Below are positions 213 to 62,447 of a stretch of 64,000 bases of DNA, one piece after another. Under the pieces are notes generated by a model. The model worked only from the letters and a program-made list of their open reading frames with translations. It had not been told where the DNA came from and ran no database searches. Position numbers and translations under genes: made by a program. Numbering within the stretch: the first letter of the stretch is position 1; each line of letters begins with the position of its first letter. Source of the stretch: Paramecium tetraurelia (taxonomy: Eukaryota); assembly GCA_000165425.1 (NCBI GenBank), contig CT868108.1, forward strand, positions 248,001-312,000. The letters run 5' to 3'.

Positions 213-1533
213 TCAATTTAAACATGCTTTTGTATCTAACCATCTTACTTTAGCTTAAACTATGGAATTACTTTTTATACCGAATTAATACAAAGTTTAG
301 ACTCTATCTCTTTAATTATTGTATTAATGTCCATTTATAAAAAGATCAAGTGCAACTTAAGACCTAAAGATTGTATGTTATTTAAGTGTTACATGTCAAG
401 GGATAAATAATTTAAAATAAATATAGCTAACTTTTCAATTTGAGTATTAGGATTAAAATGATCAACAAAGGATCTTTTATAAACACCTTCCAATATCTCG
501 ATTTTTAATTCTATTAATTATTAAACACTTAATTATGACTATTCATATGTAAATAAACATACTTGATCGTATTGATGGAATATTTAATTTGTCTAATTCA
601 TCGATTAACCATAATTTAAAGTATCAAAAGTAGTCTAAAATAGATTTTAAGTATTAAAGATGCCATTTGTAGTAGTGATAAGCAATTATTCACCAACTAT
701 GTCATTTACTGTAGAATTAAACTCCAGATTTTTATTTAATTATAAAGAATGACATGTCCATTACTATATATCTCCTTATAATCTGATTATTCAATTTTAA
801 GTATACTTTAAATATTTTTAAATAAATCGCACTATTTCAATGATTTTGGAATCTGATTACACTTCCATAGCCAAATGAACATTTAATCCAGCCTATATTC
901 GTTTTTGAATATAAATTTCATCCGTGGCAATGATGAAATTATCCATTTACAAATCTAAAAGCTTCTCGTTTGGCTTCAGGTGTTGATTGTAGTCTTAGGA
1001 ATAACATCTCCAATTCTAATAATTTTCAGTAAGTCTAATGATATTTTTTAATTTACGAATATTTGTTACGAATATGGGTGAATAAATCATGGACCTAAAA
1101 TTAATTAGTTACTTTCAAAATGAAGCGAATATTCTAAGGTTGAATAGTGAGTGCAATCGATTTTTGTTTTTCAATATGCTTTTAACAAACAATAATGAAT
1201 AACTCGTCATCCATATTTCCAACTTCATCATTGCCCCCTAATTTTATATTCCTATTGTATGAATAGCAACTCCACATATTTGTATCTCCTAATAAACTAA
1301 CTTAATATTATAATCTACTGCTCGTTTTCTTTAAAATAGTTCAGCATTTAATTCACAGTTACATTTGTCTCCATCTCAAGATTAAAGGGACTATTGTAAG
1401 GAATCAGCAGCACATTCTTTCGTATAATCATAAATCTGCTAATTCTATTATAAAAATATTGTAAGGAATTATACTCATCAATAATAGACTAAAATGATGA
1501 GTTTAATAATTAATAGATTTTAATCTTATTCAT
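213..1533 (-). CDS. Multi-ubiquitin-like-domain protein (3 WxC[YH]S-type repeats, Q/N-rich linker, terminal Ubl without GG)
   Basis: Repeats LLGDTNMWSCYS, LTENYQNWRCYS, LQGDIQQWTCHS, each preceded by a phase-2 micro-intron; C-terminal domain ...LDLFINGHQYNNQRDRVQTLYQFGIKSNSIVQAKVRWLDTKACLN-TGA. Homologous by eye to 14881-15473. Confidence 0.7.
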
Positions 1534-8346: not shown

Positions 8347-9537
8347 TGTATTTAGAAAATAATGTGTAATGATCTATTTTTGATTATGTAATAAAATTAT
8401 AAAAACATAATTTTCTAAATGCTCTCACTAAATCTCAAACCTCTTTACAAAGAAATTTCCATAGAATACTATTACTCTAACAGAATTATATGTCAGTCTC
8501 AGAAATTAATTTTAGTAATAAATCTAGATTTATAAATATATTGGAATAAAATATTGAGGAATAGATATGCTTTTCGGAAACTAGAAGAAAAACACTAAAT
8601 AATAATGATTATTTTTAGGAACAAATCGATTAAAAGTTGATAATTTTTACATGTACATCTTTATGTCCATAACAGAACTAATTCAGAAATTAAGATATAA
8701 AAGAATTAGCTTTAGCTGAATGCGGTCTATTATTTGAAAAGTTATTTATTACCAATATTTAGAAATTCTGAAATAACTATTCACAATTTTGGCTAGTCAC
8801 TACATACAACTGATGAAAAGTCATATACTATAGAAAAATGAAGCTTCGTAATAACGCGACTCTTGGGGTTAAGATAAATAACAAGAATTGCGGAAGGTTG
8901 AATTAATTATCAAACTTGAATTAGAAGGAATAGTAGATTAAAAGAAATTATGACCGAAATATTTATAAAATATAAAATTCAAATTTGATGTAATTATAAG
9001 AAGTACATTTGAGTAATTGAATTAACTTTTATAAAAAATAGAATAAAATATAGATTTAGCCCAGAGTAGAGTTGATGAAATATCAGATTAAAATTAAAGT
9101 AAAATCTTTTTCTATAATAGGTTGATAACCTTAGTATCTAAATTAATAATATACTATCTATATGATAAACTTAGAAGTCATTATTAATTAGTCAATCAGA
9201 AAAGGATCACTTCCGAGGAGTTCATTTATATAAATACTTTAATAGAATAAGAAATACTTTCATCAAATTTATAAATTATTATTATGCAAGCCTCACTTTG
9301 CACCAATTTATGAAATGAATATTGAAATAACTTGGGAACGATTGAATATTGAAAATATATAGATTATTACCAAGGATTAGCAATCTTAACTACCGATTTC
9401 CGAATATTTAAATAAATTAAGTGAAGTTAGATGACAAATTAGAAAATTCTATCTATCATACGCTATATTTTGATTGCTTTAAAATTTAAATAGGATCAAT
9501 AATGAATAATTTTCTAAAAGTTTAGGTATTTTGTTGA
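8347..9537 (+). CDS. Hypothetical protein (boundaries uncertain)
   Basis: Long TGA-free code-6 frames with protein-like composition ending at TGA 9535-9537; no motif recognised. Confidence 0.3.
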
Positions 9538-14241: not shown

Positions 14242-14880
14242 GATTATTATTTTATCATTTCCCGCAAATAAATTCTCTATTTAAATACAAAAAAATGCGC
14301 CAATTCATTATTTTAAATATCTCTTAATAATTTCACAGTTTTAATTACTTCAAGAAGGGGATCAAAGATTCATATATTTCTCAATTGAAATTTCATTCTT
14401 CATTAATTTGATTATATCGAAAAATTTAGTTATGCTCATTCTTTTGTGAGATTCTCAATTAATCAATATTATTATATATTCTTAAATCGTATCACAATTT
14501 GATTTTCATCTTATAAGTATGCATATTAATATCATTCCTAAATTATAAAAACATAAAAATTTGATTAAATATAATAAATTATTTGAAGAAGATTATTATT
14601 ATCTTAAATTATGCCATTAGAAAATATTAAGTTCTAGCAAACTAAGATCATTCTGAATACAAATAATAGCATAATAGTTCTTTAAATCGATTAAAGTTCC
14701 AAATTAAGTTTCTAATCAAACATACATAATTAATTTATCTGATAGAAAATAATTTTAATGACTTTTAATTACATCTTCATTGATGAGATCTTGAAATCTA
14801 AACAATTATAAGAATAAAAAGAAATTTACAATATTAAAAGAATGTATATATTGTATTATTTTAGAAACTTATGACATTAT

Positions 14881-15473
14881 TCAACCTCCTATCCATCTAA
14901 TTTTGGCGTCTATAGTTAAATTGTCTTTGAGTTATAAATCTGACATTGGCTTTCCTCTTTTAACTTTATCGTTATAGGGTTACCCAAAAATAAATATATC
15001 AATAGCTGTTGTCTTACTAAATTAATAATTACAATCTACTTATCTATTTCAAGTGCACAATACTATTAAACAGTATTAGCTACATCATCTAAAGTATTAT
15101 TGGTTTTGAAGACAGCATCCAACATTCTATCGATAGCTCCATCTTTGATCACAATTTTTACATTAATATTTTCTATTACTTGAGGTGACTAAGATTACTA
15201 TAGTTGCTAGGGTTAAGTATTAATTTCTAAAATTTCCCTTTAAAAATTTCCAATCTCTTCATCAATTTAAAGATACTTTTTTCTTTAAACAGAAAAGCAA
15301 GTCCAATTGTTAACATCTACTCCTTAAACACTTTCATTTTTAATTTATCATTACTTAGGCAAATTTTTGAACTCTTCGAAAACATCCTTTACTTTTACAG
15401 TCACATCGAGCTCTACTTCAAATCGTATTTCTTGAGGTTTAATAATGATTTCGTAACGATTCTATTAGATCAT
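14881..15473 (-). CDS. Two-domain ubiquitin-like protein (181 aa) ending in di-glycine
   Basis: 593 nt minus introns of 24 and 23 nt gives 182 codons; C-terminus IDIFIFGQPYNDKVKRGKPMSDLQLKDNLTIDAKIRWIGG-TGA aligns by eye with ubiquitin [34 protein letters not shown]. Confidence 0.75.
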
Positions 15474-15647
15474 TCTAATTAATATATATATTTTTTATTT
15501 TTGTAGTTTAATTACGAGGTATTGTAAAAATACATACAAAAAAATTCTACTAGGAGAAAATACAAATATATTGTTTAAGTGATTATGATAAGTCCCAATT
15601 CGTTATGTTTATTTATACAATAAATTATATTGAGTATTTTATTAACC

Positions 15648-17627
15648 TCATTATTTTTATTCTCTTTCCTTAAACTTGGGTTTAATTGGTTTTTTTGGTC
15701 CAGATCTTTTGGAGATTGACTTGTTAACATGAATATTATACCTCCATTGCTTACTTTTTAAATTCTTCTTCTTAAAACCATCTTTACTTCATATCATTTT
15801 CTTCTTCATTAAATGAAAGCACATCATCTGGACATTCTTATCTAAATTGTGAAGCTTGTGAATAATAATTCATAATATTAGCATTTTCATAAGCAATGAT
15901 ATTGTTAAGATCATCAACTTAAGATGATAATCCATGTACTTCTCCTTTTTCTAATTTCAACTGTTCTGCAATCAATCGCGCATATTCTTATATTGCATCT
16001 AATCCTTTTTATTCCAATATTCCTAAGAAATGTACCATATTTTCTTCTGTAATGGCCGCAGATTCTAAAATAAATGAAGAATATTTACTTAGTTTTTTTA
16101 TTGTTTCATCATCAACATCAATGGCTTAGAAAACTTCTTCCAAATATTTCTTAATTAAATTTATTGTTTCAATAGATTTTTCATATTGTGCTTTTAGAAT
16201 AACCTTCTTTTTCTCTTCTTATTAAATTTTATTTGACAATGCCATCTTTTATTCCCTTCTTTAATTATCATTTGTAGCTCCTTTTGTTGAATACATCTAT
16301 ATTTCTTCTTTCTTTTCTTCAATTTATCTTTCTAGTTCTTCAACAGTTTCTTATAATTCTTTGACAAATTATGACATGATTTGATTGTTTTAATACAATT
16401 CGATGAAGACTGTCAATAATTATTTACTTTCTCTTTCCTTTTTTTTATCATGAATGCCTGTTTCTTATTTAATCCTTTCAAATGCATCCTTAATCTCTTA
16501 TTCTTTAGAAGCACTCAACATATATTCTTTATCAATTTAAGCATTAGATGCTGATTTTTATCTAATAATTTCTTAATTTTCTGCAATTTATTTTTCAAGT
16601 TTATCTAAATATTCTTATTCCTTCTTTTTGCTTTAAATAAATGCTTTAAATTTCTTGTCATGTTATATTTTCTCATTTAAAGATTCACATTCTTGTTCAA
16701 ATTCCTTTTTTTATGCTTCTGCCTTCTTTTGTAATTTAGTTAGTTCTTCTTCTGCTTTATTTCTATAATAATATGCTTATCCTGCAGATTTAATGGTTTC
16801 CTCTACGTTCTTCTTCTTATCTTCTAATTCTTTTTCTAAATTTTTTGATATTCTATAAATAATATTATATATTTTTACTCCTCAACCATATTCTTTTCTT
16901 TTCTCAATTAATTGATTTTCTCTCTCAATTATTTATTATGAGCAACAATCTCATTCAACTTTTGATTAGCTTTCTCTAACTTATTTTCATGAACTGAAAT
17001 CTGATGCTGTTATGATGATAAGTTTTATTTAATTATTTATTATCCATTTTTTTCTTAACGATATTCCTCAATTTTTAAATCCTATTGTTCTTTTTATCTA
17101 GTTTAAGCTGCTTTGATTTATTCATCCAAATTTTTCTATACAAATATTATTTCTAATATTTACAGTTTCTGCTAATTCAGCTTCTATTTTTTGAATATAC
17201 GTTTTCTCAACTGGAGATAAAACAAAATATTTGATTAATTACTATTCTTAACAACTATTTAATACCACTAATTGATCACTACTCAGTTATTTTACATCTT
17301 AATCAACCATCTATTTTATTTTCCCTAACAATTCTTAAAGCTCTTTTAATCTATCTTTGTCTAGTATAGTAGCACCATAACGGTCCAACTCAGTGAGTGG
17401 AGTAGTCTTAACCTCTTCAACAAGGCATTCAATAGTCAAATATTTCGGACCCAATTGAAAAGCTTTCTAGATGTATTTCATAATGTTTTTGTTCATTGAA
17501 GACATCCTAATAATTATCATAAGTAATACATTAAGATCTTTTTATATGTTCTTCTTTTTAGCGACTCAATATCTGACAGTTTCTCGCCGCCTTTAGAAAC
17601 ATCAAATGACTTTTGAGTTTAATTCAT
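15648..17627 (-). CDS. Coiled-coil protein, outer dynein arm docking complex (ODA1/CCDC63/CCDC114)-like
   Basis: ISVHENQVEKANQKLNEIVAHNKQLREKINQLRKER...LEKELEDKKKNVEETIKSAGQAYYYRNKA, and ITEENMVHFLGILEQK near the C-terminus. Confidence 0.7.
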
Positions 17628-45818: not shown

Positions 45819-46111
45819 ATTTTTTAAATTATTTAATTTAATGAATGATGGTTAGATTAAAATACTCAAATAGAAGCATTTTATAAATATATACATAAGG
45901 TATAATTTAATAAATAGAATTCCTCTAACTCAAAAATAATATTTCATTAAATCTCTTCTATTCTATGGTATTTAAAGTGAAGGATCTCAAGTATATAGAT
46001 GGGGGCATTGAGTTCGTAATATAAAATGATTTAGATAAAGAAGTGTATTTCATTCTTGTACATTAATCTAAATACCTGTTCAGAATGTATCAGAGGTAAT
46101 TATTTAATTTA

Positions 46112-49100
46112 ATGTTCTTTTCACATTTAACACCACATACAGTGGCATCGCTTTAAGGCACAAGAATTTAGCAGCTGCATCCAGCAAAAGACTCCAGTGG
46201 TTTAGCAATTGCAAATGTATGCTTCAGCGAAGGCGTTCATTATTGGGAAATCGTATGCCCTTTTAATACGGATGGAGTGAAAGTAAGGCGTAGTCCTAAT
46301 TGCAGATTGGCATATCCAAATAGTAATCTCCAAGCGAAAACTTTGAGGGACACCTATTCGAATTTAAAACGACAACTCAGAGAGTAGTGGGTGTGCTTCT
46401 CAATTTCAACGAGTAATCACTGTAATTCTACTTGAATGGCAATCTGAGTACTAACAAAGGCATACCAAAGGGCAGTCTGATTTCATGTCCTTGGTACCCT
46501 TGTGTTAGATTATCGCAATTTGGCAATTCGGTGTATTTGACAATGAAGTATGAGGATCGCAGTGTCGTAGAGCATTGCGAATAAGTTCAGCTTGAGACCT
46601 AGTAATCGTAGCATCCAAATCCCTTCTTCTTGATTAATAAGTATCTATAATATGATATAGATAGAAATGAAATTCATCAATTGCAAGATCGATTAGTGTC
46701 AGTTCGAAATTGTCCTTTGGTTGGATAACAGATTCCTAAGGCAGATTTAGATGTACTAATAAAGATGAAGTTGGTGATCTGCGATTATCATGACCAGAAT
46801 GAGATAGTATATTTAATTTTGAATGAAGAAACATCACAAAAACTTAAAAGGGTAAGACAATATTTAAAACATCATGTGAGGAAGTTGAAGGAGAAATTTG
46901 AGAGCAAACCATAGGAGAAGGAAAAAGATTAATTGTTGCAGGAGATCACATAGATGTTGCCAAATAACGAGGAAATAGTGTAGGAAGAAAAAAAGGATGA
47001 ATTTGAATACAAATATTCAATAGAACTATGCAGAATAGCCGATAGAATAATTGTTTAATTGATAGAATAATTTGAAGAGGTCAGAAGTATTGAATCTGCT
47101 AAGATGAGATTGTAAACATTTGTTGATCATCCTGCTACAGATAATCCATTTAAAGTTGTTGAATATGGAAAATACTTACAACCAGGTTCAGGAGTCAAGT
47201 ATGCATATTGTGATAATGACATCAACAACAATGGAACCAAACATTCGAAATTAATATTGCGAAGTGAAATACCTGCATAAGGCTAAATAATCCCATGCAA
47301 AAGTGATCGCTATTTCTCATTGAGGAATTAAGATCGATTAACCATTTACAATGGAGAAGCAGAACTATTCAAAGTCATTGATGTAGATTTGAGACAATTG
47401 GGACCATATCAAAAAAATATCAAGGTAATAGATGTCCAATAGGAGGAAACACCCAGTCACATATATAAAATATTGGAAAATTATATTATTGGGGAAACCG
47501 AACAATTGCCATTATATGATCAAACAATACTTGAGAAGTTGATCAGAATGGGTTTTGAGGAATCAGATTGCAAAGAGGCACTTATACAGACTAATAACAA
47601 TTTTGACAAAGCACTCGACATTGTAAGTAGAACCACTGGAGAATGGCAATGCAAATTCTGTACTTTGGTCAATAAAGAAACCAATCAAATTTGCGAGGCT
47701 TGTGAAGGTCCAAGACCAGATGATTCATAGGAAGAAGAATTTCTTATTAAATAACCATTGCAAATTTAATAAGATTTGGTGGAAGTGGATTAAAAGGAAG
47801 AAATTCATTAGGAATTTAAAGATAAAATCACTGAAAGCACTATCAATCATGTCTCAGTTATTCATTGGGATAGTAATAATACAACATTTCCAATATTAGT
47901 GGCAAGTGTTCATAATAAAAATATACTCTCTATTAAATTCATATCATATTCCTAAAATTATTTGGATCAATTTTTTATAAATGAGGATGGCTATTATTGT
48001 GTATTAACAAATTGTTGGAGCAAAAACAAGGATTACTCATTATTATTGCAATCTGAAACAAGTCGATAAATAGTTGAGACTCTGGCTCCTCTGTATAGTA
48101 AACATTGCAAAAAGTTAGAGATGAATCTAGTTGATCATAAAGCAATTCAATTAGAATATGAGATTAAAGCTATTGATAGTGCTATTTGGAATAATAGACT
48201 CTATGTTTTTTTGATGGGTGACTAAGCATTAAACATTTATGAAATCACTTAAAACTCTAAAATTGAACTTTAGAAATAGATCTTCATCGGATCTGATTAC
48301 AATCTCCTCATTTCCAAAACCAAATGTCTAATTTATAGTCAGTCAAAAAATTTGATTATCAATTCTCAATTAAATGTCTCTGAAATATAAGAACCAATTT
48401 CAAATGCATATATTAAAGATAATATCATCTGCTATGAAAGTAACACCCAACACAAGTAAATTGAAGACAACTCTGAAATCTTAGAGAATAATATTATTCA
48501 AAGTGAGGAAGTGTAGATCTTCTAAACTGTTACTGATGATGTTCACAGTTAGAAATTCTAAATTGCTGATAATTACACTCACATCCACGTCAAAGCTGTT
48601 TTTGAAGGACCCATTGAAGAACCCAAATAAATTCCATTAATGAACAGTCCCTTAACAGTGAGTGATCCTTAAAAATTACCTTTAACTGTCCATTCATTCA
48701 AAGGTGCCTCCTTTAATGATTAAACTTTTGTTACTTAAATGCTCTTTGATAGTAATAAACCCTTCTCAAGCAATTATCCAAACACTTAATTTATATTCAG
48801 AAGTCAATTTGATGAAATTATGCTCGTGGACCATGTTAGAGTTAAAAGTGAGATCACCAATGTCTTCAGAGGATTCCCCATTGGAACTGGATTGATCTTT
48901 ACTTCAAAAGAAGAGCATGAGTTGAATGACACTTCAGAATTTGATTATTTTGATAAACAACAATATGAAAAATGGAAATCAACTCATTAAAGTCTCTTTG
49001 CAAATCAACCAGTAGGGTACTTTGAATTTGAAGGAGACTCAAAAGAGGCTCTATGCAAATTGGAAGTTATACGACCATGCAAATATTTAATGCTTAAACC

Positions 49101-52100
49101 AACGAACTTTAGAAAAACACCTCATGATCATACAGCACATATTTAAACTAACTCCGTTGAAATCAAAGGTTTTGCTGCTTACGGAATTGAAATTCCCAAG
49201 AGTTAAATTGAAAATTCAACTTTTGGTACAATCTCAGACTGCTAATTATTAACCTAACTTAGAAAACGAATTGATCTACCAGATAAATTGATTGTTTAAT
49301 GTTAATATTAAGGAATAAATGGGTACCCAAGCAATGGTATTATTGAATTTGATACTGTATTTTCAGGAGATTTTATTATCAAACCATATGAAGATTAAGA
49401 ATATAAATTATTAAAGGTGACAGTGACAGGGAAAAAATATAATAATTTATATATCAATCAATTAGATAACCTAATAGAAGAGGTATATCAGAAAAAACCA
49501 GGGGCTTTGAGTGTTCTTAATTTATTCATGAAGAAAGAATCCAAAAAAGTATTAGAAATCATTAGTTTATCTAAATTTATTCTTGGAAATGTGTTGTCTT
49601 AGAATGTAAATGAATAAGTAACAGAATTCTTCAGACATCTCTAATAACACGATGAATTTCATGATATTTTATTGTAAGTGGCACAACAGATACTAAATAA
49701 GATTGAAAAAGTAGTTTTGACAGAAAGTGGTTTAGAATACTTTTTAGGATTGTTAACTTACACAGCCAAATTTAAAACACAAGAAATCACAGATCTGGCT
49801 ATAAAATCTTTATTGCTTGCTTTACAAAAGTTGAAAACAATTGAACACAAAGATATGTTCTTATTTTCAACCAAATACGGAGGTCCTCAAGGATAAGTTC
49901 AAATCTAAGAAATCGATGAAAAATAGATTGAATAGAATGGTAACTAGAAAACCTTGATATGCTAAAAGGATCCTCTGTCTTAGATTCTAATTATGCAATT
50001 GTCAAATAAGTAATAGATTAGGAGATTTGAAGTCAATCTTCTTGGAGAATTTGAAATTGAGAAATTGTCCTTAAGATTTCAATAGACATCCAATTCAGTC
50101 AAATTTAGAGTACAAGTTTGGGTAGACAATTTAGTATTAGATTAAGTTTATGATGAATGGACCTTTGTGTAATTCACTGATTATGTTCATAAGAGTGCTA
50201 ATTACAACAATTACAATTGCTTACACATTGGACTCAATAGAATTAGAGCTCGTAAATTATTGGTGCAATTAACTTTGGGAAGTGATAATTATTACTCTAA
50301 ATAATCAGTTTAGCTATAGATCCCATAGAATTACTTAACCATCATTCCAGAATTCTATGGATCTCTTTTGAATGCTGAATTAAGTCCATTAGAAATTACT
50401 GAAGATTTCAGATTTAAGAATACCTTATCATTAGGTGAATCCCTTTATTATGTCTATTAATCAGATAAATCTATACTCATGGACTCATACAATGTTTATA
50501 AAAAGACTGATTTAACTGATCATTACATAGTGATGTCAACTAAATCATTAAGGAGAAATGCTGATTATCTAGAACAAGCGATTTACAAATTGCAATCAGA
50601 AATGCAATTAAAAGAAAAAAGCAACCTACAAACAAATCACCTTTAAAATCTAATTGAATAAACTCAATTAGAATTTTTGAAAGTAGCACCCCCTAGAAAC
50701 TACGAAAACAATTCCAATTTCTTAACAGTATTCTCATCACTTCTGTTGAGAATGCTTATTGCTATCTCTGGCACAGTACCTGATGTATTAGAATTCATAA
50801 AACTTATCATATCACTGGGAGATATGAACGGAATTACTGATTTGGCTTTATAATTCATTCAAAAGAAAGTTAAAGACTAAATTCCTGAAGAACAATGGAA
50901 CGAATTGATTATAGGATAATTTACAAGTCAAAATGCTCTAAAGAAAAAGCTATTGCATTAATTGCCAATCCCAATATTGGAATCATTATAGAAATTAATT
51001 GAATTAAAAGATGATGTGCTTTATGACGCATTAGTAACACAACTATAGAGAATTCCACAGTAAAAATATACCGAAGATGGAAATCCAGATAATGAAAAGA
51101 TTTTAACTTTGATTTTTGAATTTCTTATCAATGATACTAAGTTTAGATTAAAGCTATTGTAAAATGCATTGCCAAAATGTACTGCTCTCTAAATAAAGAA
51201 TTCATTAAATGAAAAGATCCTAACAGATATATTTTCAAGGGGAATATCATAGCCAGAGAAATTCAAGTTTCTGTTGGAGATGCTCTTATAACCAAGACAA
51301 TTGGAAAGTAGATACACAGATTGGGCAGCTACACTATAATTGAGTGATCAAATAAATAAGACTTTATAAATTGAGAAGGATAGTTTGATCTATATATCAA
51401 AATACATAATATACTTCTGTTAAATCTACATAAAAGAAAATGTTGAAAAATTAAGCATTGATAATTTGTTATTGTTATTTGATTTTCTGACGAAGAGTGT
51501 AAAGAAGGTAAACAAATTGAAAACTAGAGAAACCAATAAACAGTTAACTGATTTTGAAGACTTTTTGTAAAGATAACACATTTAAATATGTTATCCAGAC
51601 ACAATAAATAGACTGATCCAATTATTAGAGAAATCAGAGAATTACCTAGCTTGGAATAAGGTATTGAAAGTGATATTGATGATAACACCTCAATTGCAGA
51701 ATGAACTACAAATTTATCAAAGGGTTATCCAATCATATTTAGGATGCAAATAGAAGTTGTTGATGAATGAGTTACTCTAATTCACTCTTAATTTAGCATA
51801 ATAATAAGTACAATAAAATCAGACATGTTCGCAAATTATCGATGCCTTATTACCACATCTGGGATTAAATGAAATAAACCATATCTTCATAGTATTCTCC
51901 TAAGATGTATAACACATCTACTTGAATAATGTTAATATTCTACTCAAATACATAGGCATGTATCTACCATATTAAGGAGGAAAGGATGGCATCATTAATG
52001 CTGACAGTCAAGTGATTCAATAACTAGAACTCTGTTAATCGATGATCTACTTACTAGTGCAAAGTGAGTAAACCTTACCATAACTAAAGGAGAGTCCGGA

Positions 52101-55100
52101 TTTGAATAATTTATTCGAATGGTTTTGTTTGAATTGTTATTCTGGAAAACAGATACATTCATATGCTGGCTAATTACTTGAGTGGATGAGTGAATCATTA
52201 GATTAACTCTTTGAATTGTTACCATGCAAATAATACATCTTAAAATAATTATTCAAATAGCAATACTACATAGATGATGTGATAACTAAACAGTATGAAA
52301 ATAATTAGATCACTTCATATACTGCATTTACATATACAACTCAGATTTTGGAAGTGATTCAATCACAATTTGATAAGTATTTAACTTCAGATGATGTTGC
52401 ATAGCAATTCTAATCAGATATCTATCATTACCTAATAAATAAGATCATATAGGAGAAACAAATTACATAGGTCTAATTTTTAGAAGAAGAATTTGGCAAT
52501 AAAATGAAGGTTTTCAATTTGCCAGGCCAAAATGTGTCTAATTAAGATTGGCCATTGCACAAGAAAGGAGCAAAGAGTAGATTAGCTCTTATTACTCTAC
52601 CCTAGGGAATGAGAAGTGAATATCAAATGGTCTTCTAATTCGATAATGAAATCGAAATCAAAAATATTAGATTGGGCATTTAAACATTTACTGCAGATTT
52701 TACAGACAAATAATTAGGTACTCCAAGCAGTATCTTACTAGAAGTAGGCAAATCACTAGAAGAACTATACCCAATTGCTGAAATGCAATTAGTAAATGAC
52801 GAGCATTATTCGCAATATTAAGTCAAAGTCTTTTGCTATAATTCTCAGGTCATGAATAAGTAACAATTACCTTCTGGACAATCTGTGAAATTCATAAGTT
52901 TCAGAATGAGATAACAATATGTGGAATAATTGGACACTACTAGAACTATGAAAAAGCTGTGTTTGGGTATCAGTTTTATTTCTGTTATTGGATACAGTGC
53001 AATTCGATAAAAGGTTGATTTCATTTACACATTGTAAGAGAAGACTGCAATCGAAATTCTATCCAAATTCTGTAAGCCCAATTATCAGAAGACATTACAA
53101 TAGTTAGCCAACGATTCCATAGTATTGGAATAACTCTAAAATAATATTGATAAGTTCATGAATGCTCTTAATTCCTATTCATTTTAATTAAGTCCTTTGA
53201 TTTTAGCAATTGCTAAATATAATCATCAGGTTGGAGATTGGCTTGTAATGAAGTTGATGGAATACCCTGAATAATCACATAGTAAATTACTAAGTCAAAT
53301 TATATTGGAAGGAGAACATGTTCATGAAAGATTCCTGAAATTACACAACCATCTATTTGAAAAACTCTTGGCTCTCCAAATTAACAATCATCAATAATAA
53401 GATCTATTGTGGTATGAAAAATTAGCTCAACATTTCATTGAATCTTATTGCAATGTTCTTTTATTACAAAATAGCAAATTGAAATAAAGAGAATTATCTT
53501 TAAATATTAATAAAAATGACATAATACATTTAATCGAATTGTTTTAATTGATGCATAACAAACACGCTAGACATTTGCTTATCAAACTAATAGTCACAAT
53601 CACTTATCTACCACATCCTTATTAATAAATTGAAGAAGTTGAATAGATCCTGTAATTCACTTTGGATAAGAGTAGAACCTAACCATATTTCCTTGAAGTT
53701 CTTGGACCCTTGTCATTGGGTAACAAAGTAAGTATTGGATGGATTGTGAATCAATTGGATTAAATTTTTGATAAATTTGATTTGAACTCTGTTATTCCAT
53801 TCTTTTATACTCTATCGACCAATAAAAAGATTGCTGATCATTTACTCAAATATCTTCTCCCTCTATATCATTTGTTAATAGAAGAACCGACAAGCAAGAC
53901 AATCTTGAAATAATTAGATGATAAAACAATTGAAACAGTGGCTAAATTCATAAGTTATATGGTATAGAAGTATCATGCAAAATTCATCATTGAAGCTTTG
54001 ATTCGAGATATTGGCAGATTGGAAGGAAATAAAGATATGAAGTTTGTGAGATCCTTGTTGGTTCCTATTTTGAACAGTGAAGATTATGTGTTTTTGAAGA
54101 TTCAATTTGAAGATCAAGGCAGATATATTTTGGACCCAAAGTTGATTGCTTAAAAAAGGATTGATAATACCTAAAAGTAAGACGAAGTAGTTTTTGAATC
54201 ACAATTACTAACAATAAAGTAAAAAGATTAATTGTTTGCTCATTTAACTGAAACCTATTGGAATAAGGTGGCTTATTAGAAAAATGATGGAGATTCTGAT
54301 ATTTTACCACACTTAGAAGATAAATTCTTTAATTCTACTCCCTAAATGATGGTTATTAACTATAAAATCAATAATACAGACAAAACTATTATTTTATATC
54401 ACAATGAGAAATGCATAAAATAAGACAAATCAGATTTAGCATACTCTTGGAATCAAGGGAAGTTGAAAGTATACTATTTCAATGAGAATAATTTAATTGT
54501 CAATGAGGAGATCGACCTGAATGCCTTCATTGAAATATATGATGAGTAAGGTACCTTAACCTTCTAAAATAATGATAAGGCGTTCTTAGAATTAGAATAT
54601 GTGGCAGGAGAACCCTCAAGAATCAATTTAACATCATTAAATCTAAAAGATTAGGGAATAATAGACAATTTAAAGATTGAATACTATGTCTCTGGAGTTA
54701 GACCTTAAAAATAAAAGAAAGCATTGCCATAAATCAATATCCCACAAGAGACTATCAGTTAAATATTCCCTAATTATGAGACTAATTAATCATTGTAATA
54801 CTATAGTGCTGTTCCAGTTTACTAATTGCCAAGTTAGCTAAAACTAAATGAATTGAAATAATTGATAGTTTTCAACAAGTATGGATTAAAATAGGAATGC
54901 AATATATTTGAAAAATAGACAAAATTGTGTGAGTTACCTACAAATGAACTAAATATTATTGAGCTAGAAGTCAATGCAAGAGACTTCATAGATAATATCC
55001 AACCCAAGACATTAACATTCACATATCCATAACAATTAACAATATTCCCCTTATTTGAAGAAATGAATGGGGTAAATGCTATGTTATCAGTAATTAGAGA

Positions 55101-58100
55101 AGGAATTGGATTATGGAAGAATTAATAGAGAGCAAATGCTTGGCTATAATTCTTGAATGAATTGCAATCATTTTGTTAATTGCCCAATTTTTTCAATTTG
55201 TTTATGAAGAACCAATTATGTGTAAATCTATTGTTTGATTTAATTGCCGGACCCCCAGACTCAAACAATTAGAAATTAGAAGAGGAAGAATAAAATGCTG
55301 TTAAGTTCATCTACACTACATTGGTTAGCGTATTCAGTGCTAGTAGTGGACCAGAAGTAAGAATAAAGGCTTTGGAATAGAATTTAATCAAATAAATCTT
55401 AGACCGAATAGCTTTGGTTAGTAAGGAGACTAAGAGAGTATTTAGAAATGTGCTTGAAAAACAAGTGGTATAAGAATCACCTCAGAAAAATAACACATTG
55501 CAGAAATCAACAAAATAGAAGAGAGGAGTGGGATATGCAAGTGATAATACTGGATAAAATTAGAAATGGAACACCATAGAATATGTGGAGAAGAAAACAT
55601 AAAAGTCATAACAATTAATTGGTTTATTGGGTATAGTAGAGTCATTCTTTGATTTCCAACATTGGCATCCAAGTGAAGACCTATTACATAAATTAAAGAA
55701 CACCTTATTTGAAAGTGCATTATTGCCTTTGCTAGAAAGTGCATTCAGAAGTGGCTCACTTTTGGAAATATCAAAAGAATTCGATTTGTATTGCAAGTAT
55801 TTGAAGATAGTTTAATCCATGTCTCATCATAAAGTATTGGCCGGTGTTTTCTTAAAGATACCTGAGTAGTATTATCCTCCTCAAACTTAATCATTATTTG
55901 AATTGTTAAGTGCTTTGGCAGATACATCCAAAATCTTTATGAATTGCATCTAAAATAATAGAAAGAAGAATGAAGAAGAAGAGCACTCATTTGAGATTGC
56001 CAAAATGATTATAGATACTCATAAACGAATGGAAAATTGCATCAATAAAATGAATGATAGTGGTAGTAGTAGCAATGAAGAGGACGAGACTGAATAACTC
56101 AAGAAATAGAAAGAACTAGCAAATGAATTAATCTAATAGATTCTATCCAAATAATTACCTGAAGCATACAGAACCTTGTTGTCAGACTTGAGATTCAATT
56201 ACATTGATATGAAGGTTGGTGGCAGATATAAACATCATTACTCAGGCAACATATCAACCTAAATAAATCAAGATAAGATCGTAAGATTAGCCTAAGAATT
56301 TGCAGATATGTCAACATCCTTACCAATTGAACACACGAATGCCATATTTGTAAGAGCTGACAAAGAACGTGTAGATGTAATGAAAGCATTAGTTATGGGT
56401 GCAAAAGGTACTCCTTATGGACATGGTGCATTTCTATTTGATATTTATGCTGATGATTCATATCCGAATGCTCCCCCTAAAATGAATTTATCTACTACAG
56501 GAAATGGAAAAGTCAGATTCAATCCTAATTTGTATAGTTGTGGAAAAGTATGTTTGTCACTCTTAGGTACATGGAGAGGAAATGCTTCTGAAAATTGGGA
56601 TCCAAAAATCTCTACTCTCCTTTAAGTTTTAGTATCCACCCAAGCCATTATTATGAGTGAAGAGGTGTATTTCAATGAACCAGGCTCTGAATAGGAAGCA
56701 AACACAGATGAAGGTGAAAAGAGAAATGAAGGATATTCTAATATTGTCAGATATTGCAACATCAAATATGCTATGATAGACTAAATTAGAGATCCACCAA
56801 AAGGATTTGAAACTATTATTAAAAGACACTTCTATCTCAAAAAATAGGAAATCTTGGAGGAATGCAATAAGTGGGTTGAACTTGCAGATACAAAAGAAGC
56901 TTTATATACTGGGTTACTAAATGATCATAATTCCAGCTGGTGTAGTGAATTCAAAAAGAGCAAGAAAGCATATCATAAGAAGTTGTCTGAAGCTGTTAAA
57001 GAATTGGAGGAAGAATTGAATAAAATTTAACCACCTTCTGCTGCTGATTTAGAAGGATCCAGAGTACTAAGGACTCATGTCAAGAAACAACCTAAAGTTA
57101 AAAATCTAAAAGAGGGAATGGCCAATTTGGATGAAGTAGATGTTACATACACAAAGATCTAATAGAAGGAATTCGAAGCAAATGATGAAAATGTCTTAGA
57201 TAGATGGAGTAGATACATAGGTGCTATGGGAATGGATGCAGTGAAGAAATAGGCAAATAGTTGTGTTTTGGTATCTGGCATTGGAGCTTTGGGTATTGAA
57301 GTAGCCAAAAATATAGTATTATCAGGAGTCAAAATGCTAACAATTCATGATTAACAAAAAAGCACTTAATTTGATCTTAATGGGTAGTTCTTCATTGAAG
57401 AAAAAGATATTGGCAAGAACAGAGCTGAAGTTAGTTGGGAAAAATTGCAATAGCTCAATTCATATGTCAGAGTAAATTATGAAACATCAGAACTCCTTAA
57501 TATCGACTTCACTAAATACAACATTGTAGTAGTCTGTGCTACATATCCAAATGATGTATTATTCAAATTATCAACATTATGTCGTTAACACAAGGTCAAA
57601 TTAATTATTAGTTCAGTTGATGGAGTCTTCGGAAGAGTGTTCAATGATTTTGGATAGTCTTTCATTGTTGAAGACAAGAATGGGGAACAAACTGTTGATT
57701 ATATTGTTAAATCTGTTACTGATAAAGGGGAAAATAAGTTGCACTTTGAAATCACAGGTAAACATGAATTTTAAGATAATGATGTTGTTATGATTGATAA
57801 TATTGAAGGAATGATAGACTCAAATGGAAATTCAATTAACAAAACCATTTAAAAGGTCAAAGTAATTAGTAAATCAATCTTGGAGATTCAATTAAATGGA
57901 TATTCAAAATACATTCGAAATGGAACTATTAAATTGGTTAAAGTACCTGTTGAATTATCATTCCACCCCTACAATCAAGAATTCATCGATAAACCAATTT
58001 ATGATCCAAATATGTCAGAATACGATTTCATCAAATTGTAAAATACTGAACAACTACACAGTCTTTATAATAATAAATAGATCAAGGATGAAAATTTCGA

Positions 58101-60170
58101 ATTGTTATTCAAACATTACTCAATTTTAGGAGAGTTCTCACCTTTGTCTGCTTATCTTGGAGGCTTCGTCTCACAAGAGGCCATCAAGGGAATAACTAAT
58201 AAATTTACTCCAGTTTAACAACTATTCTATGTGGATTGCACAGAAGTATTATAAAAAGAGATATCCAAAGATGTCAAAGTCAGTGAAAGATCTTTAAGTA
58301 GATTCTTGGGTACAGAAATTGCTGAAAAATTAGAGAAATCTAAAATATTCATGGTTGGATGTGGTGCAATAGGTTGTGAATTACTCAAGAATTTTGCCAT
58401 GCTTAATTTAGGAATAAAAGGTTCAATCACAATAACTGATCCAGACCATATTGAAGTTAGTAATCTAAATAGGTAATTCTTATTCAGGGAAAAACACTTA
58501 AGAAAACCTAAGTCTTAGACAGCAGCTGCTGCAGTCATTTAAATGAATCCGTATTTGAGAGATCACATCATAGCAAGACTAGATAAGGTTCATGACTCAA
58601 CAGAACATATATACACAGATCAGTTCTTTGAAGATCAAGATATCATTGCTAATGCTCTAGATAATGTAGCTGCTAGAAGATATGTAGACAAACGATGTGT
58701 TAATTCTCGTAAGCCACTATTGGAATCTGGTACTCTTGGACCAAAAGGTCATGTACAATGCATCGTTCCATTTTAAACTGAATCTTATGGCAGTTCTAAT
58801 GATCCTGTAGAAGAAGGAGAAATTCCATATTGCACACTCAAGATGTTCCCTGAAGAGACTTTCCATTGTGTCGAATTTGCAAGGGATAAATTTGGCAAAC
58901 ATTTTTCAGCAAGACCAAAATAATTAATAAAAATGATGGCTGAAGATTATATCCCCCAGTTTAGAAGATAATAAACCTTTTAAGAGAGGCTATCAAATTG
59001 TTTAAGAACAAACCAAACTCCTTTGAAGATTGCATTAAGTGGGCAAGAGGAAAGTTCTAGAAATACTTCATTAATGACATCAAATAACTAATGTATACAT
59101 ATCCAGAAGATGTTAAGACCAAGGATGGAAATCTGTTTTGGACTATGCCTAAACGTCCTCCCAAGCCTATTTAATTTGATCCTGAAAATGAAATTCATCA
59201 ATAATTTGTATCTACCTTTGCTTTTCTCAGAGCCAAAATGTTCAGTCTTTAAACTGACAAAGATTGGAGAACTAAAACTTATAGATAATCAGTAGCTAAA
59301 CAAGCTAATCTAATCACCTTCCCTGAATGGCAACCAAGTGAAGAAAAGAAGAAAGTATTTATATATTTAATAATAATTTTAGTCTATTTCCGATAAGGTT
59401 AAAGAGCAAGGATAAAAAGAAGAACCTGAAGAGAATGAGACTACTCAAACCCAAAGCACTTAAGAGGAAACACAATTGTTATTTAAATAATTTAAATCTT
59501 TATTGCCAATCACTTTAGCATCTGATGAATTTGAAAAGGATAATGATTAAAATGGACACATCGATTTCATACATTCCTTTGGTAATTTAAGGGCTGCAAA
59601 TTATAAACTGGAACCCATGGATTGGCTAACTGTGAAAATTAAAGCTGGTCGTATTGTGCCTGCTTTGGCTACTACCACTGCTGTTGTTGCTGGACTATAG
59701 ACAATAGAATTAATTAAAACTTTGAAGAATGTATAGATTTCAGACATGAAAAACGCTTTTGTCAACTTAGCCATTCCCTTTGTGAAATTAACTGAACCAG
59801 GTTTGGTACCCAAGAAGAAAATCAATGAAAAAGTCACTGTTACGTTATGGGATATATGGACACAAGAAATTACAAAGCAAACTACTTTCAGATAGTTGTT
59901 TGAGATTCTGAATTAATAATATGATTTACATCCAAGAGATGTGTTTTTGAAGGCTTAACCTGTGTATATGGAAATAATGTATGCGAAAAAGGCAGAAGAG
60001 AAAAAACACTTTTTGGGACCAAGCAATCATTAAAGTATTAGAAATACAGGTATAATATAATGTTATTTTTTATTAGAAATATGTTGGATTTGACTATCAA
60101 TTTTACATTAAATTAGGAGAGTTAAGAAATTATCAAGGGAATTCCGTAAGTCAGATTGGTTTTGAAGTGA
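46112..60170 (+). CDS. Giant E2-E1 fusion: SPRY - UBA - NZF - BIRC6/BRUCE-like body and UBC - UBA6-like ubiquitin-activating enzyme
   Basis: One frame runs from 46306 to ~58958: track ORFs 47473, 49417, 49678, 55627, 56308 and 58543 are co-frame, and no in-frame TGA was found in the stretches read codon by codon. [23 protein letters not shown] (Cys 56551); E1 [30 protein letters not shown] (Cys 58831), [13 protein letters not shown]. Confidence 0.92.
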
Positions 60171-60226: not shown

Positions 60227-61353
60227 TCAATATCTCTGTTGTTGGAAATAGTTATCTTCCAATTCATCAATAAATGTGAAATAGGCAATCACAGCAGTAA
60301 TATCATCGCAACCAAATTTCAAGTATGGCAAATCACCAATCTTTGAGTTTGTCTTCTTTTATTTGTTCATTTCATCCCATCTGGATCTGCATTCAGTAAC
60401 CTATATAAATATCAATATCTACAATAGCTTCAGCCACACTCTCTTTTGGCTCATGTTTCAAGACAAATCCACAGACTTCAGCACTACTCATCACATCCCA
60501 AACACCATCTGATCCTATAACCATAAACTTGTCCTATTTTGTTAATTCAATATGTTGGACTTCTGGTTCTGAAATCAAGCCTATCTTCTTAGCTTGCAAA
60601 TCTCCCAATCTATAACTAATTTGAATTTCAATACGTTCTAGTCATGGCAATTCCTGGCCCCTCATCATCTGCCCAAATACGATATGGACCAACTGGCTAA
60701 CCATCATGTATTAGCCTTTCGATTTTGCCTCCACATTCTTATGATTCTCTCCTTCTCATCTGGTCTTGTTGGCTTATGAATCATATGATAATTCAATGGC
60801 CCAGTTTCTCTTTTGCAGTTTATCTAAATAGTACTGCTCTGGAATCACCCAGATTAGCAATGTAACACATATTCTTAACTACAAATATTGATATTGCACA
60901 TGTTCCAGAATTACTGTAATCTATACCAGAAGATCTGAGTTTTGCTTCAGCATTTTTAAAAGCACTCTTCAAAAAACTCTCTCTTTGTTTATCATTCTAT
61001 AATGCCTTGATTCTCTTTGGGTTTTTCTCCAAGAATGTCTAAATATAATCATTGGCTGCTTAGGATGCTTCTTTGCCTGAGGAACCATGACCATCATACA
61101 CTTATAATAAAAATGAAGTTAAACCTGCAAAGAAATAACAATCTTCAGTAAATCTTTCCATAGTACAATAGGAATCTTGACATTCAGTCTTTTTGGGACC
61201 ATATCCCATCTTTGAATGTCCAAATAATTTGATTTCCTTCATGGGATTTATCAAAGTCTTGTTGAGATTCTACACCACATTTTACTTCTTCTTCTTTTTC
61301 TTGTTCTTGCCACTCTAATTGCTATTACCTCCAAACCAATTAAGAAGAAACAT
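60227..61353 (-). CDS. Protein phosphatase 2C (PPM family)
   Basis: ECQDS, FAVYDGHG, SGTCA, ANLGDSRAV, GIAMTR-LGD, GSDGVWDV, DDITAV; three apparent single-base insertions at 60740-60803. Confidence 0.92.
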
Positions 61354-61387
61354 TTATATTTATATATATTTAAATTATTTATTAAAA

Positions 61388-62447
61388 ATGCTACGATTTA
61401 TTTATCAAGGATTCTCAACCTTAGTAAAATAAAATCCACTTAAGAATGGGTTCAGATTTGAGAATTAAAATCTCACCTGGACTTTCGGCGAATTCGATGT
61501 ATTCAATAGTTGTTATTGAGAGACACATTCAAGTGCATTCGCATATGGATTGATTGAACAAGGTTGGAAACAAGGAGACAAGCTTTTGCTCTTGCTTGGT
61601 AGATCCAACACCAGTGAGGCAGCCACTACATTTGCTGGAGCAGCCAAAGCTGGAGTAATTACAGTACCATTCAGATCCAATGATCCAAATGAAATTGAAA
61701 AGACTATTAGTATTGTCAATCCAAAGGGAATTGTGTTTTCGCCCAATCAACTCGTTGGAGAAACCAAGTTCATCGAAGTCCTCAAAACCCTTGTTCCTGA
61801 AACAACTTAGAGTATCTATTAAAATTAATTTGCCCTCTAGCTCACTCAGGAGAAAGTCTGAAGAGTAGTAAATTTACTAATTTGAAATGGTTGATTCATA
61901 CTGGATTCTATTCATACCCAGGAACTTACAAATTCAGAGTATTAAACTATTGAAGCCACTAGGAATCATTGGTTTACGCCTCCAGGAACTTCAATCGTCT
62001 TTCTCTCCCAACTGTTACAGGACCAGTCACAGCTCAATTGAGAAATGGATAACTCTAAACCTACACTTATTAGGACTTAGCGAAATTGAGTGACAAAGTG
62101 CAGGGATCTAAACATGTCATTGTCTCTGGAGATCCATAAACTGTAACCAACTTCAGCATTGGTAAGTTCAAGGATTTCTAATATCGTAGTTGTCGGAGGA
62201 TTGGAAAGAGGTTACAATACAGTTTTGACAGGCGCAGACAAATTAACCAAGGTCTAAAAGATTCTACAATATTATGACAATTATAGTTTGGTAGTAGATG
62301 ATTCAGTTCTCAGTGAATAATAATAAGTATGATGAACTTTTAATATCCTTGTAGTCTGTTGATGTTGGCAACCTTTAAAATTTATTCACAGTTGGCGATG
62401 TCACAAAGGCTCAAAATGTATTCCAAAAATAAGCCATCTAAATTTGA
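61388..62447 (+). CDS. Truncated AMP-binding (acyl-CoA synthetase-like) protein, probably mitochondrial
   Basis: MLRFIYQGFSTL presequence-like start; WTFGEFD...FAYGLIEQGWKQGDKL...AGAAKAGVITVP is an ANL N-terminal subdomain; about 310 aa. Confidence 0.7.

Follow-up and report, generated by a model that had tools for sequence, protein, structure and literature searches.

A two-domain beta-grasp protein of Paramecium tetraurelia with a terminal Gly-Gly: a candidate lineage-specific ubiquitin-like modifier

Introduction

To our knowledge, two-domain ubiquitin-like (UBL) modifiers are known from vertebrates only, namely ISG15 and FAT10, both of which have immune roles and evolve fast. ISG15 is built of two tandem beta-grasp domains connected by a short hinge and ends in a ubiquitin-like tail with a C-terminal Gly-Gly. 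FAT10 (ubiquitin D) also consists of two beta-grasp domains and carries a free Gly-Gly (GG) that needs no processing, in a tail ending I-G-G. OASL carries its tandem beta-grasp pair in fusion with an OAS-like domain, and the pair is not known to be conjugated. The UBL domains of deubiquitinases (the USP9X UBL, the DUSP-UBL of USP4/11/15, UCH_UBL1) and the Rad60/SUMO-like domains occur at internal positions, without a terminal GG, and are not conjugated either.

The protein described here (P0004) is encoded within a 64,000-nt stretch of Paramecium tetraurelia DNA, hereafter called the window. It is free-standing, with two tandem UBL domains and a GG end, as in ISG15 and FAT10. Where ISG15 has a short hinge between its domains, this protein has a long linker that is predicted to be disordered, and its tail reads RWIGG; unlike the OASL pair, it stands alone and has a terminal GG; and unlike linear (M1-linked) di-ubiquitin or polyubiquitin, its domains belong to different families with no GG between them, so that it is not a cleavable polyprotein. 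Sequence homology to ISG15 or FAT10 was found neither by phmmer nor with the family profile among PDB chain sequences at E<=10, nor to FAT10 in Pfam at the same threshold. The layout is analogous to that of ISG15 and FAT10 and, by any sequence test run, not homologous to it, and since the host is Paramecium and not a vertebrate, an ISG15-like layout would be convergent.

Results

Gene structure, splicing and expression

The window is AT-rich (GC content of 0.23-0.33) and looks like ciliate nuclear DNA, containing in-frame TAA and TAG codons with TGA as the sole stop. Under the ciliate code (TAA/TAG = Q), 15 glutamine codons of the coding sequence are TAA or TAG vs 3 that are CAA. The gene occupies the minus strand from 15473 to 14881, where introns of 24 and 23 nt divide it into three exons, and its product has 181 residues. 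The frame that starts with the ATG at 15473 is broken by an in-frame TGA, which lies inside intron 1, and the excision of intron 2 switches the reading frame to the one ending RWIGG-TGA. The features are as follows.

15355..15473, minus strand: exon 1; start codon ATG (15473..15471); encodes residues 1-39 plus the first two bases of codon 40; RNA-seq coverage and junction
15331..15354, minus strand: intron 1, 24 nt, GTAATG...AAAG, with the in-frame TGA inside; dip in depth, 6 reads join 15330 to 15355
15040..15330, minus strand: exon 2; residues 40-137, from the last part of the N-terminal domain through the linker into the C-terminal domain, of which it holds the first half; RNA-seq
15017..15039, minus strand: intron 2, 23 nt, GTAGA...TTTAG, canonical GTA..TAG; dip in depth, 3 reads join 15016 to 15040
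14881..15016, minus strand: exon 3 and stop; residues 137-181; TGA at 14883..14881; RNA-seq
15210..15473, minus strand (intron 1 within the span): predicted N-terminal beta-grasp domain, residues 1-80, with the family-wide W-x-C-x-S at residues 49-53
15174..15209, minus strand: Q/P/S-rich linker, predicted disordered, residues 81-92 (pLDDT <50 at 82-89; alignments)
14884..15173, minus strand (intron 2 within the span): predicted C-terminal beta-grasp domain, residues 93-181
14884..14898, minus strand: codons of R177-W178-I179-G180-G181, followed directly by the stop; W[I/Y]GG is kept in 12 of 24 family members

The raw reads of two oligo-dT RNA-seq runs were mapped to 14700..15700 (91 reads in X20, 233 in X21). 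Coverage was limited to 14836..15481, with no reads in the flanks up to 15583, and the first mates all lay on the plus strand, as a stranded library made from minus-strand RNA should give. Read depth fell across each intron. In 3 reads the loose end at 15016 carried the letters starting at 15040, and in 6 reads the loose end before 15355 carried those ending at 15330. Both exon junctions were thus seen, which confirms the GG-stop ending. The gene is real, expressed and spliced as modelled. Its spliced translation equals, letter for letter, the annotated P. tetraurelia macronuclear protein P0004 (181 aa), which one source, matched through the exon-2 translation, labels 'Ubiquitin-like domain-containing protein'. 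The first-pass annotation of this DNA had proposed a 181-aa spliced reading frame ending in AKIRWIGG directly before TGA, and both the annotated protein and the RNA-seq junctions agree with it.

An enumeration of GT..AG introns (17-60 nt, one to three per gene) yielded 2976 combinations with an open frame. A rival intron at 14983..14964, which likewise gives an open frame ending in RWIGG, was excluded by the RNA-seq junctions.

Predicted fold

An AlphaFold2 model from the single sequence had a pLDDT of 35.3 and was replaced by one calculated with an alignment of 25 family sequences, which reached a mean pLDDT of 89.0, with 134 of the 181 residues at or above 90. The model consists of two beta-beta-alpha-beta-beta-beta units (residues 4-77 and 94-178) separated by a linker with pLDDT below 50 at residues 82-89, in line with the two domains and Q/P/S linker proposed at first. 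The modelled domains display the beta-beta-alpha-beta-beta-(3-10)-beta topology of the ubiquitin fold.

In a Foldseek search the PDB yielded 500 matches or more, of which 393 had E<=0.001. Top among the matches listed were ISG15, with the best score (7rbs_B, 4.5e-10; many ISG15 chains), linear di- and tetra-ubiquitin, FAT10-UBA6 (7pyv_C, 3.4e-8) and the tandem UBL of OASL (7sbi_B, 1.1e-7). The Atlas values were TM 0.43/0.46 for ISG15 and, for the 'Ubiquitin D family' cluster, TM 0.46/0.50 over residues 24-181. Whole-chain TM-scores in Foldseek were low (0.33-0.48) and the rmsd high (8-16 angstroms), as expected for two domains on a flexible linker. Both domains are thus predicted to be beta-grasp by the AlphaFold2 model, Foldseek and VIA-align, and the proposed likeness to ISG15 and FAT10 is borne out at the level of structure.

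A closer view of the C-terminal domain was obtained from single-domain superpositions (VIA-align), in which it matches ubiquitin and SUMO up to the last glycine. For instance, residues 19..97 of E1-bound SUMO1 (3kyc_D) pair with residues 92..181 of the model, so that both chains are aligned to their ends. Since the alignments reach the final residues, G180-G181 takes the place that the activated GG has in true modifiers, a predicted position equivalent to G75-G76 of ubiquitin. The last strand of the model extends to W178, residues 171-180 have a mean pLDDT of 93 and about three residues are free; from this we infer a modelled tail that is shorter and more ordered than expected for a flexible one.

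Sequence relationships

The sequence had been described as far from ubiquitin, NEDD8 and SUMO, and this held: P0004 has no Pfam ubiquitin-clan match at E<=10, with PF00240 absent for both P0004 and P0005, and phmmer with P0004 finds no UBL among PDB chain sequences at E<=10. Over 25 family members, the Pfam matches at E<=1 were Rad60-SLD (5), RA_2 (4), UCH_UBL1 (4) and ubiquitin (2); PF00240 is thus matched by 2 of 25 members, with a best E of 0.014, and its gathering score is not attained by P0004 or P0005. The N-type domain, as we call the family's N-terminal unit, does attain the RA_2 cutoff of 27 in P0011 (30.3 bits) and P0012 (28.8 bits), and the C-type domain stays just under the Pfam cutoffs, e.g. 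23.2 against 24 for UCH_UBL1 in P0007. All scores that bear on the comparison with deubiquitinase UBLs and Rad60 lie below the Pfam gathering thresholds. The best PDB sequence match of the family profile is the USP9X UBL (E 0.014).

A designed protein found by phmmer in the PDB (E 0.13) was set aside as a chance match, as were Pfam matches of the exons or the whole protein (YppG, Piwi, Rad52 and others), which are at chance level and all below the cutoffs.

The N-type and C-type domains show no detectable relation to each other (hhalign probability 0.2%), a further difference from ISG15, and an origin of the two-domain layout by internal duplication is rejected at the sequence level.

Family members and range

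A phmmer search with P0004 against 1.84 billion cluster representatives (E<=0.001) gave 20 matches, all of which were inspected; 19 look like family members with a common architecture, and P0017, an unrelated repeat protein, was rejected as a relative. The ten matches looked up, together with the cluster member P0025, all come from P. tetraurelia, P. octaurelia, P. primaurelia, P. pentaurelia or P. sonneborni. An alignment query found 13 proteins and so added six more members, from the same species, and the C-terminal 62 residues as query returned P0004 and P0005 only and did not enlarge the family. At E<=0.001 no relative was found outside these five species of the Paramecium aurelia complex in a single-sequence search of collections that may miss several Paramecium species. 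The protein had been called ciliate-specific, and the range found is narrower than that. Searches for protein homologues revealed no close whole-genome-duplication ohnolog of the gene in P. tetraurelia. Database labels of the family are limited to the automatic 'ubiquitin-like domain-containing' or 'uncharacterized', and a full-text literature search returned no paper whose abstract opening concerns the Paramecium two-domain family. P0004 and its relatives form a new beta-grasp family of narrow range.

Members of the family are built of one to four N-type domains (~75 aa), a Q/N/P/S linker and a single C-type domain with a consensus that closes in ..TIEARIRWIGG. The linker ranges from ~12 to ~90 aa, being ~70-80 residues longer in the long-linker paralogs (235-248 aa). 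Multiple N-type domains without an intervening GG occur in P0008, P0011, P0012 and P0015, and P0024 continues for ~150 further residues after the C-type domain. The most conserved feature of the family is the W-x-C-x-S motif, which lies on strand 3 of the N-type domain (P0004 residues 49-53, about 15303..15289, minus strand), in which W49, C51 and S53 are nearly invariant; it is kept in at least 90% of 25 sequences, above the conservation of the terminal GG.

Within the subclade of the gene, P0004 and its P. octaurelia counterpart P0005 are 62% identical (C-domain branches 0.19 + 0.19), and P0006 and P0026, from P. primaurelia and P. pentaurelia, are nearly identical in the C-terminal domain (branches 0.028 + 0.045). 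The low identity of the tetraurelia/octaurelia pair reflects either a non-orthologous pair, through differential loss of duplicates, or unusually fast evolution there.

The Gly-Gly ending across the family

The ending was compared across the 24 proteins in which the C-type domain is complete. W[I/Y]GG is present in 12, at the very end in four (P0004 of P. tetraurelia, P0005 of P. octaurelia, P0006 of P. primaurelia and P0026 of P. pentaurelia) and followed by 1 to 8 residues in the other eight. These tails consist of one residue in two proteins (L, R), three in five (SEY, SQY, SQR and twice SVY) and eight in one (NDMIIKYY). The GG is absent in the remaining 12, eight of which still keep the preceding R-W; their endings include RWID, RWLN, RWA, RWQGA, RWIGLKN, RWIKSNI, RWLD.. 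and SWGEYI, three are also without RW, and P0024 runs on as described above.

A maximum-likelihood tree was built from 23 rows of the C-type domain, P0021 and P0022 being too short to include. Its GG members fall into two clades, the short-linker clade of the gene itself (support 85/92) and a long-linker clade (94/96). All six proteins of the subclade to which the gene belongs retain the GG (one each from tetraurelia, octaurelia, primaurelia and pentaurelia and two from sonneborni), as do six members of the second, paralogous clade, which is 24-36% identical to the first. Members without GG sit mostly on long branches or stems (0.55-2.05, vs 0.007-0.36 for the terminal branches of GG members), with the exception of a GG-bearing pair ending RWYGGSVY behind a long stem (1.14). 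The long-linker paralog P0009, also from P. tetraurelia, ends RWIGGSEY; together with P0004, this species therefore has at least two GG members. The expected conservation of the GG is thus seen within these two clades and fails in half of the family.

Discussion

The question raised by these data is whether P0004 is conjugated to other proteins, as the first-pass annotation had supposed. We regard it as a credible, still tentative, candidate for a lineage-specific ubiquitin-like modifier of the ISG15/FAT10 layout, with a probability of roughly 45%. The end of the protein is that of a mature modifier: RWIGG stands directly before TGA in a transcript spliced as modelled, and the alignments to SUMO1 and to ubiquitin variants end at G181. 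An arginine is found five residues from the end, as it is at position -5 of the ubiquitin tail. In the second clade short tails of varying sequence come after the GG, as they do in UBL precursors, and the members without GG mostly belong to long branches or stems. Taken together, the predicted fold, the position of the GG, its persistence in both of two divergent clades and the short tails of varying sequence form the combination that marks conjugatable UBLs and their precursors. The beta-grasp fold and the GG conserved in two clades therefore speak for the modifier proposal, and half of the family, devoid of GG, speaks against it.

This latter observation leads to the principal alternative, namely that P0004 is a non-conjugated tandem UBL-domain protein that binds partners non-covalently (e.g. 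the proteasome, an E2, a deubiquitinase or cytoskeletal proteins), RWIGG being the mere end of the last strand and the GG a neutral or structural element kept or replaced among paralogs. We consider this nearly as likely as the modifier reading. Since 12 of the 24 members have no GG and mostly retain R-W, the conserved core function of the C-type domain need not involve conjugation; the extension of the P0024 type, the scaffold-like arrays of one to four N-type domains with no GG between them (P0008, P0011, P0012, P0015) and the short modelled tail past the last strand point in the same direction, as do the weak profile matches of the C-type domain, which are to non-conjugated deubiquitinase UBLs (USP9X, UCH_UBL1) and Rad60 SUMO-like domains. 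However, the GG survives in two clades only 24-36% identical, as the exact end or before short variable tails, and this persistence is hard to attribute to structure alone because the residues after the strand are otherwise free to vary. The members that lack it are, moreover, mostly fast-evolving.

The gene is best read as encoding a small cytosolic protein in which two unrelated beta-grasp domains are held by a floppy Q-rich linker. If P0004 does act as a modifier, its layout would have been reached independently of ISG15 and FAT10. The C-terminal domain would offer a ready-made Gly-Gly for adenylation by an E1, and the activated protein would be handed via an E2 to lysines of target proteins, with the N-terminal domain and its invariant W-x-C-x-S strand possibly serving as the recognition surface. 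Paralogs with 1 to 8 residues after the GG would first have to be trimmed by a UBL protease, and those that have lost the GG may act non-covalently or be decaying. As the family is limited to five closely related species, a conjugation pathway, if dedicated, would be young or borrowed.

A candidate activating enzyme lies in the same window. The plus-strand frame at 46030..60093, uninterrupted over 4687 codons, contains a UBA domain, a RanBP2-type zinc finger and a UBC (E2) domain at residues 3419-3559, followed by the E1 FCCH, two ThiF and the SCCH domains. The E1 looks complete, and the whole is a ubiquitin-type E1 in fusion with a giant E2 of the BIRC6-like kind; a stretch around the SCCH region resembles an unspliced or frame-shifted segment. 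Human BIRC6 is charged by UBA6, and for this reason the E2-E1 fusion may be a Rosetta-stone pairing. That P0004 is charged specifically by this enzyme appears improbable to us. E2 and E1 domains do share a single frame, the two-domain FAT10 uses UBA6, and the arginine at -5 is ubiquitin-like, but a distance of 30 kb carries no weight in a eukaryote and the fused enzyme could simply use ubiquitin. Equally improbable is a broader scenario in which the aurelia complex would have evolved its own set of two-domain modifiers (ready-made RWIGG-stop forms, trimmed RWIGG-SEY types and non-conjugatable decoys or adaptors), at least one of them charged by the fused E2-E1, as a self-contained lineage-specific system.

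A beta-grasp domain with a terminal GG is also found in sulfur carriers of the URM1/MoaD/ThiS type, in which the GG would be thiocarboxylated instead of conjugated. This is very unlikely for P0004, as the best among the fold matches listed are ubiquitin, SUMO and ISG15-type structures, the family is confined to one species complex, unlike the universal sulfur carriers, and we know of no sulfur carrier with a two-domain layout and a Q-rich linker. That the GG-stop ending is an artefact of a wrongly picked intron, for which the 2976 alternative intron combinations leave room, is refuted by the reads that join precisely 15016 to 15040 and 15330 to 15355, and the exon-3 frame is also conserved up to the GG in other species.

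If the modifier proposal is true, an independent ciliate invention would make the di-UBL layout a recurrent solution, and a new conjugation pathway would become accessible in a tractable protist (microinjection, RNAi by feeding, proteomics). Should the protein turn out not to be conjugated, the Paramecium family still adds two new beta-grasp sequence families that lie outside Pfam. With its varying number of N-type domains and its apparently conserved three-gene cluster, it offers a clean case of very young UBL diversification.

Genomic neighbourhood

Three genes of the family lie within 15.5 kb of the window. The second member (213..1431, minus strand) is closest to P. sonneborni P0008, which has three N-type domains and one C-type domain; the frame of its last exon (213..395) ends ..AKVRWLDTKACLN, without GG, the ending reading RWLDTKACLN. 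The third, at about 8541..9097 on the plus strand, is closest to P. primaurelia P0024, a type in which the N-type and C-type domains are followed by a long, helical-looking extension with no terminal GG. In P. sonneborni and P. primaurelia the corresponding proteins share contigs and their accession numbers differ by 11 and 10; the three-gene cluster therefore appears to be kept in both species.

Immediately upstream of the gene, a 487-codon frame rich in E, K and Q and coiled-coil-looking is found at 15418..16881 (minus strand). Assembled contigs of two runs (X3, X4) cover 15590..15700 only, which lies outside the gene, with a gap of ~100 nt to the start codon of the gene. At about 60393..61404 (minus strand) there are frames with motifs that we take to be those of PP2C-type phosphatases.
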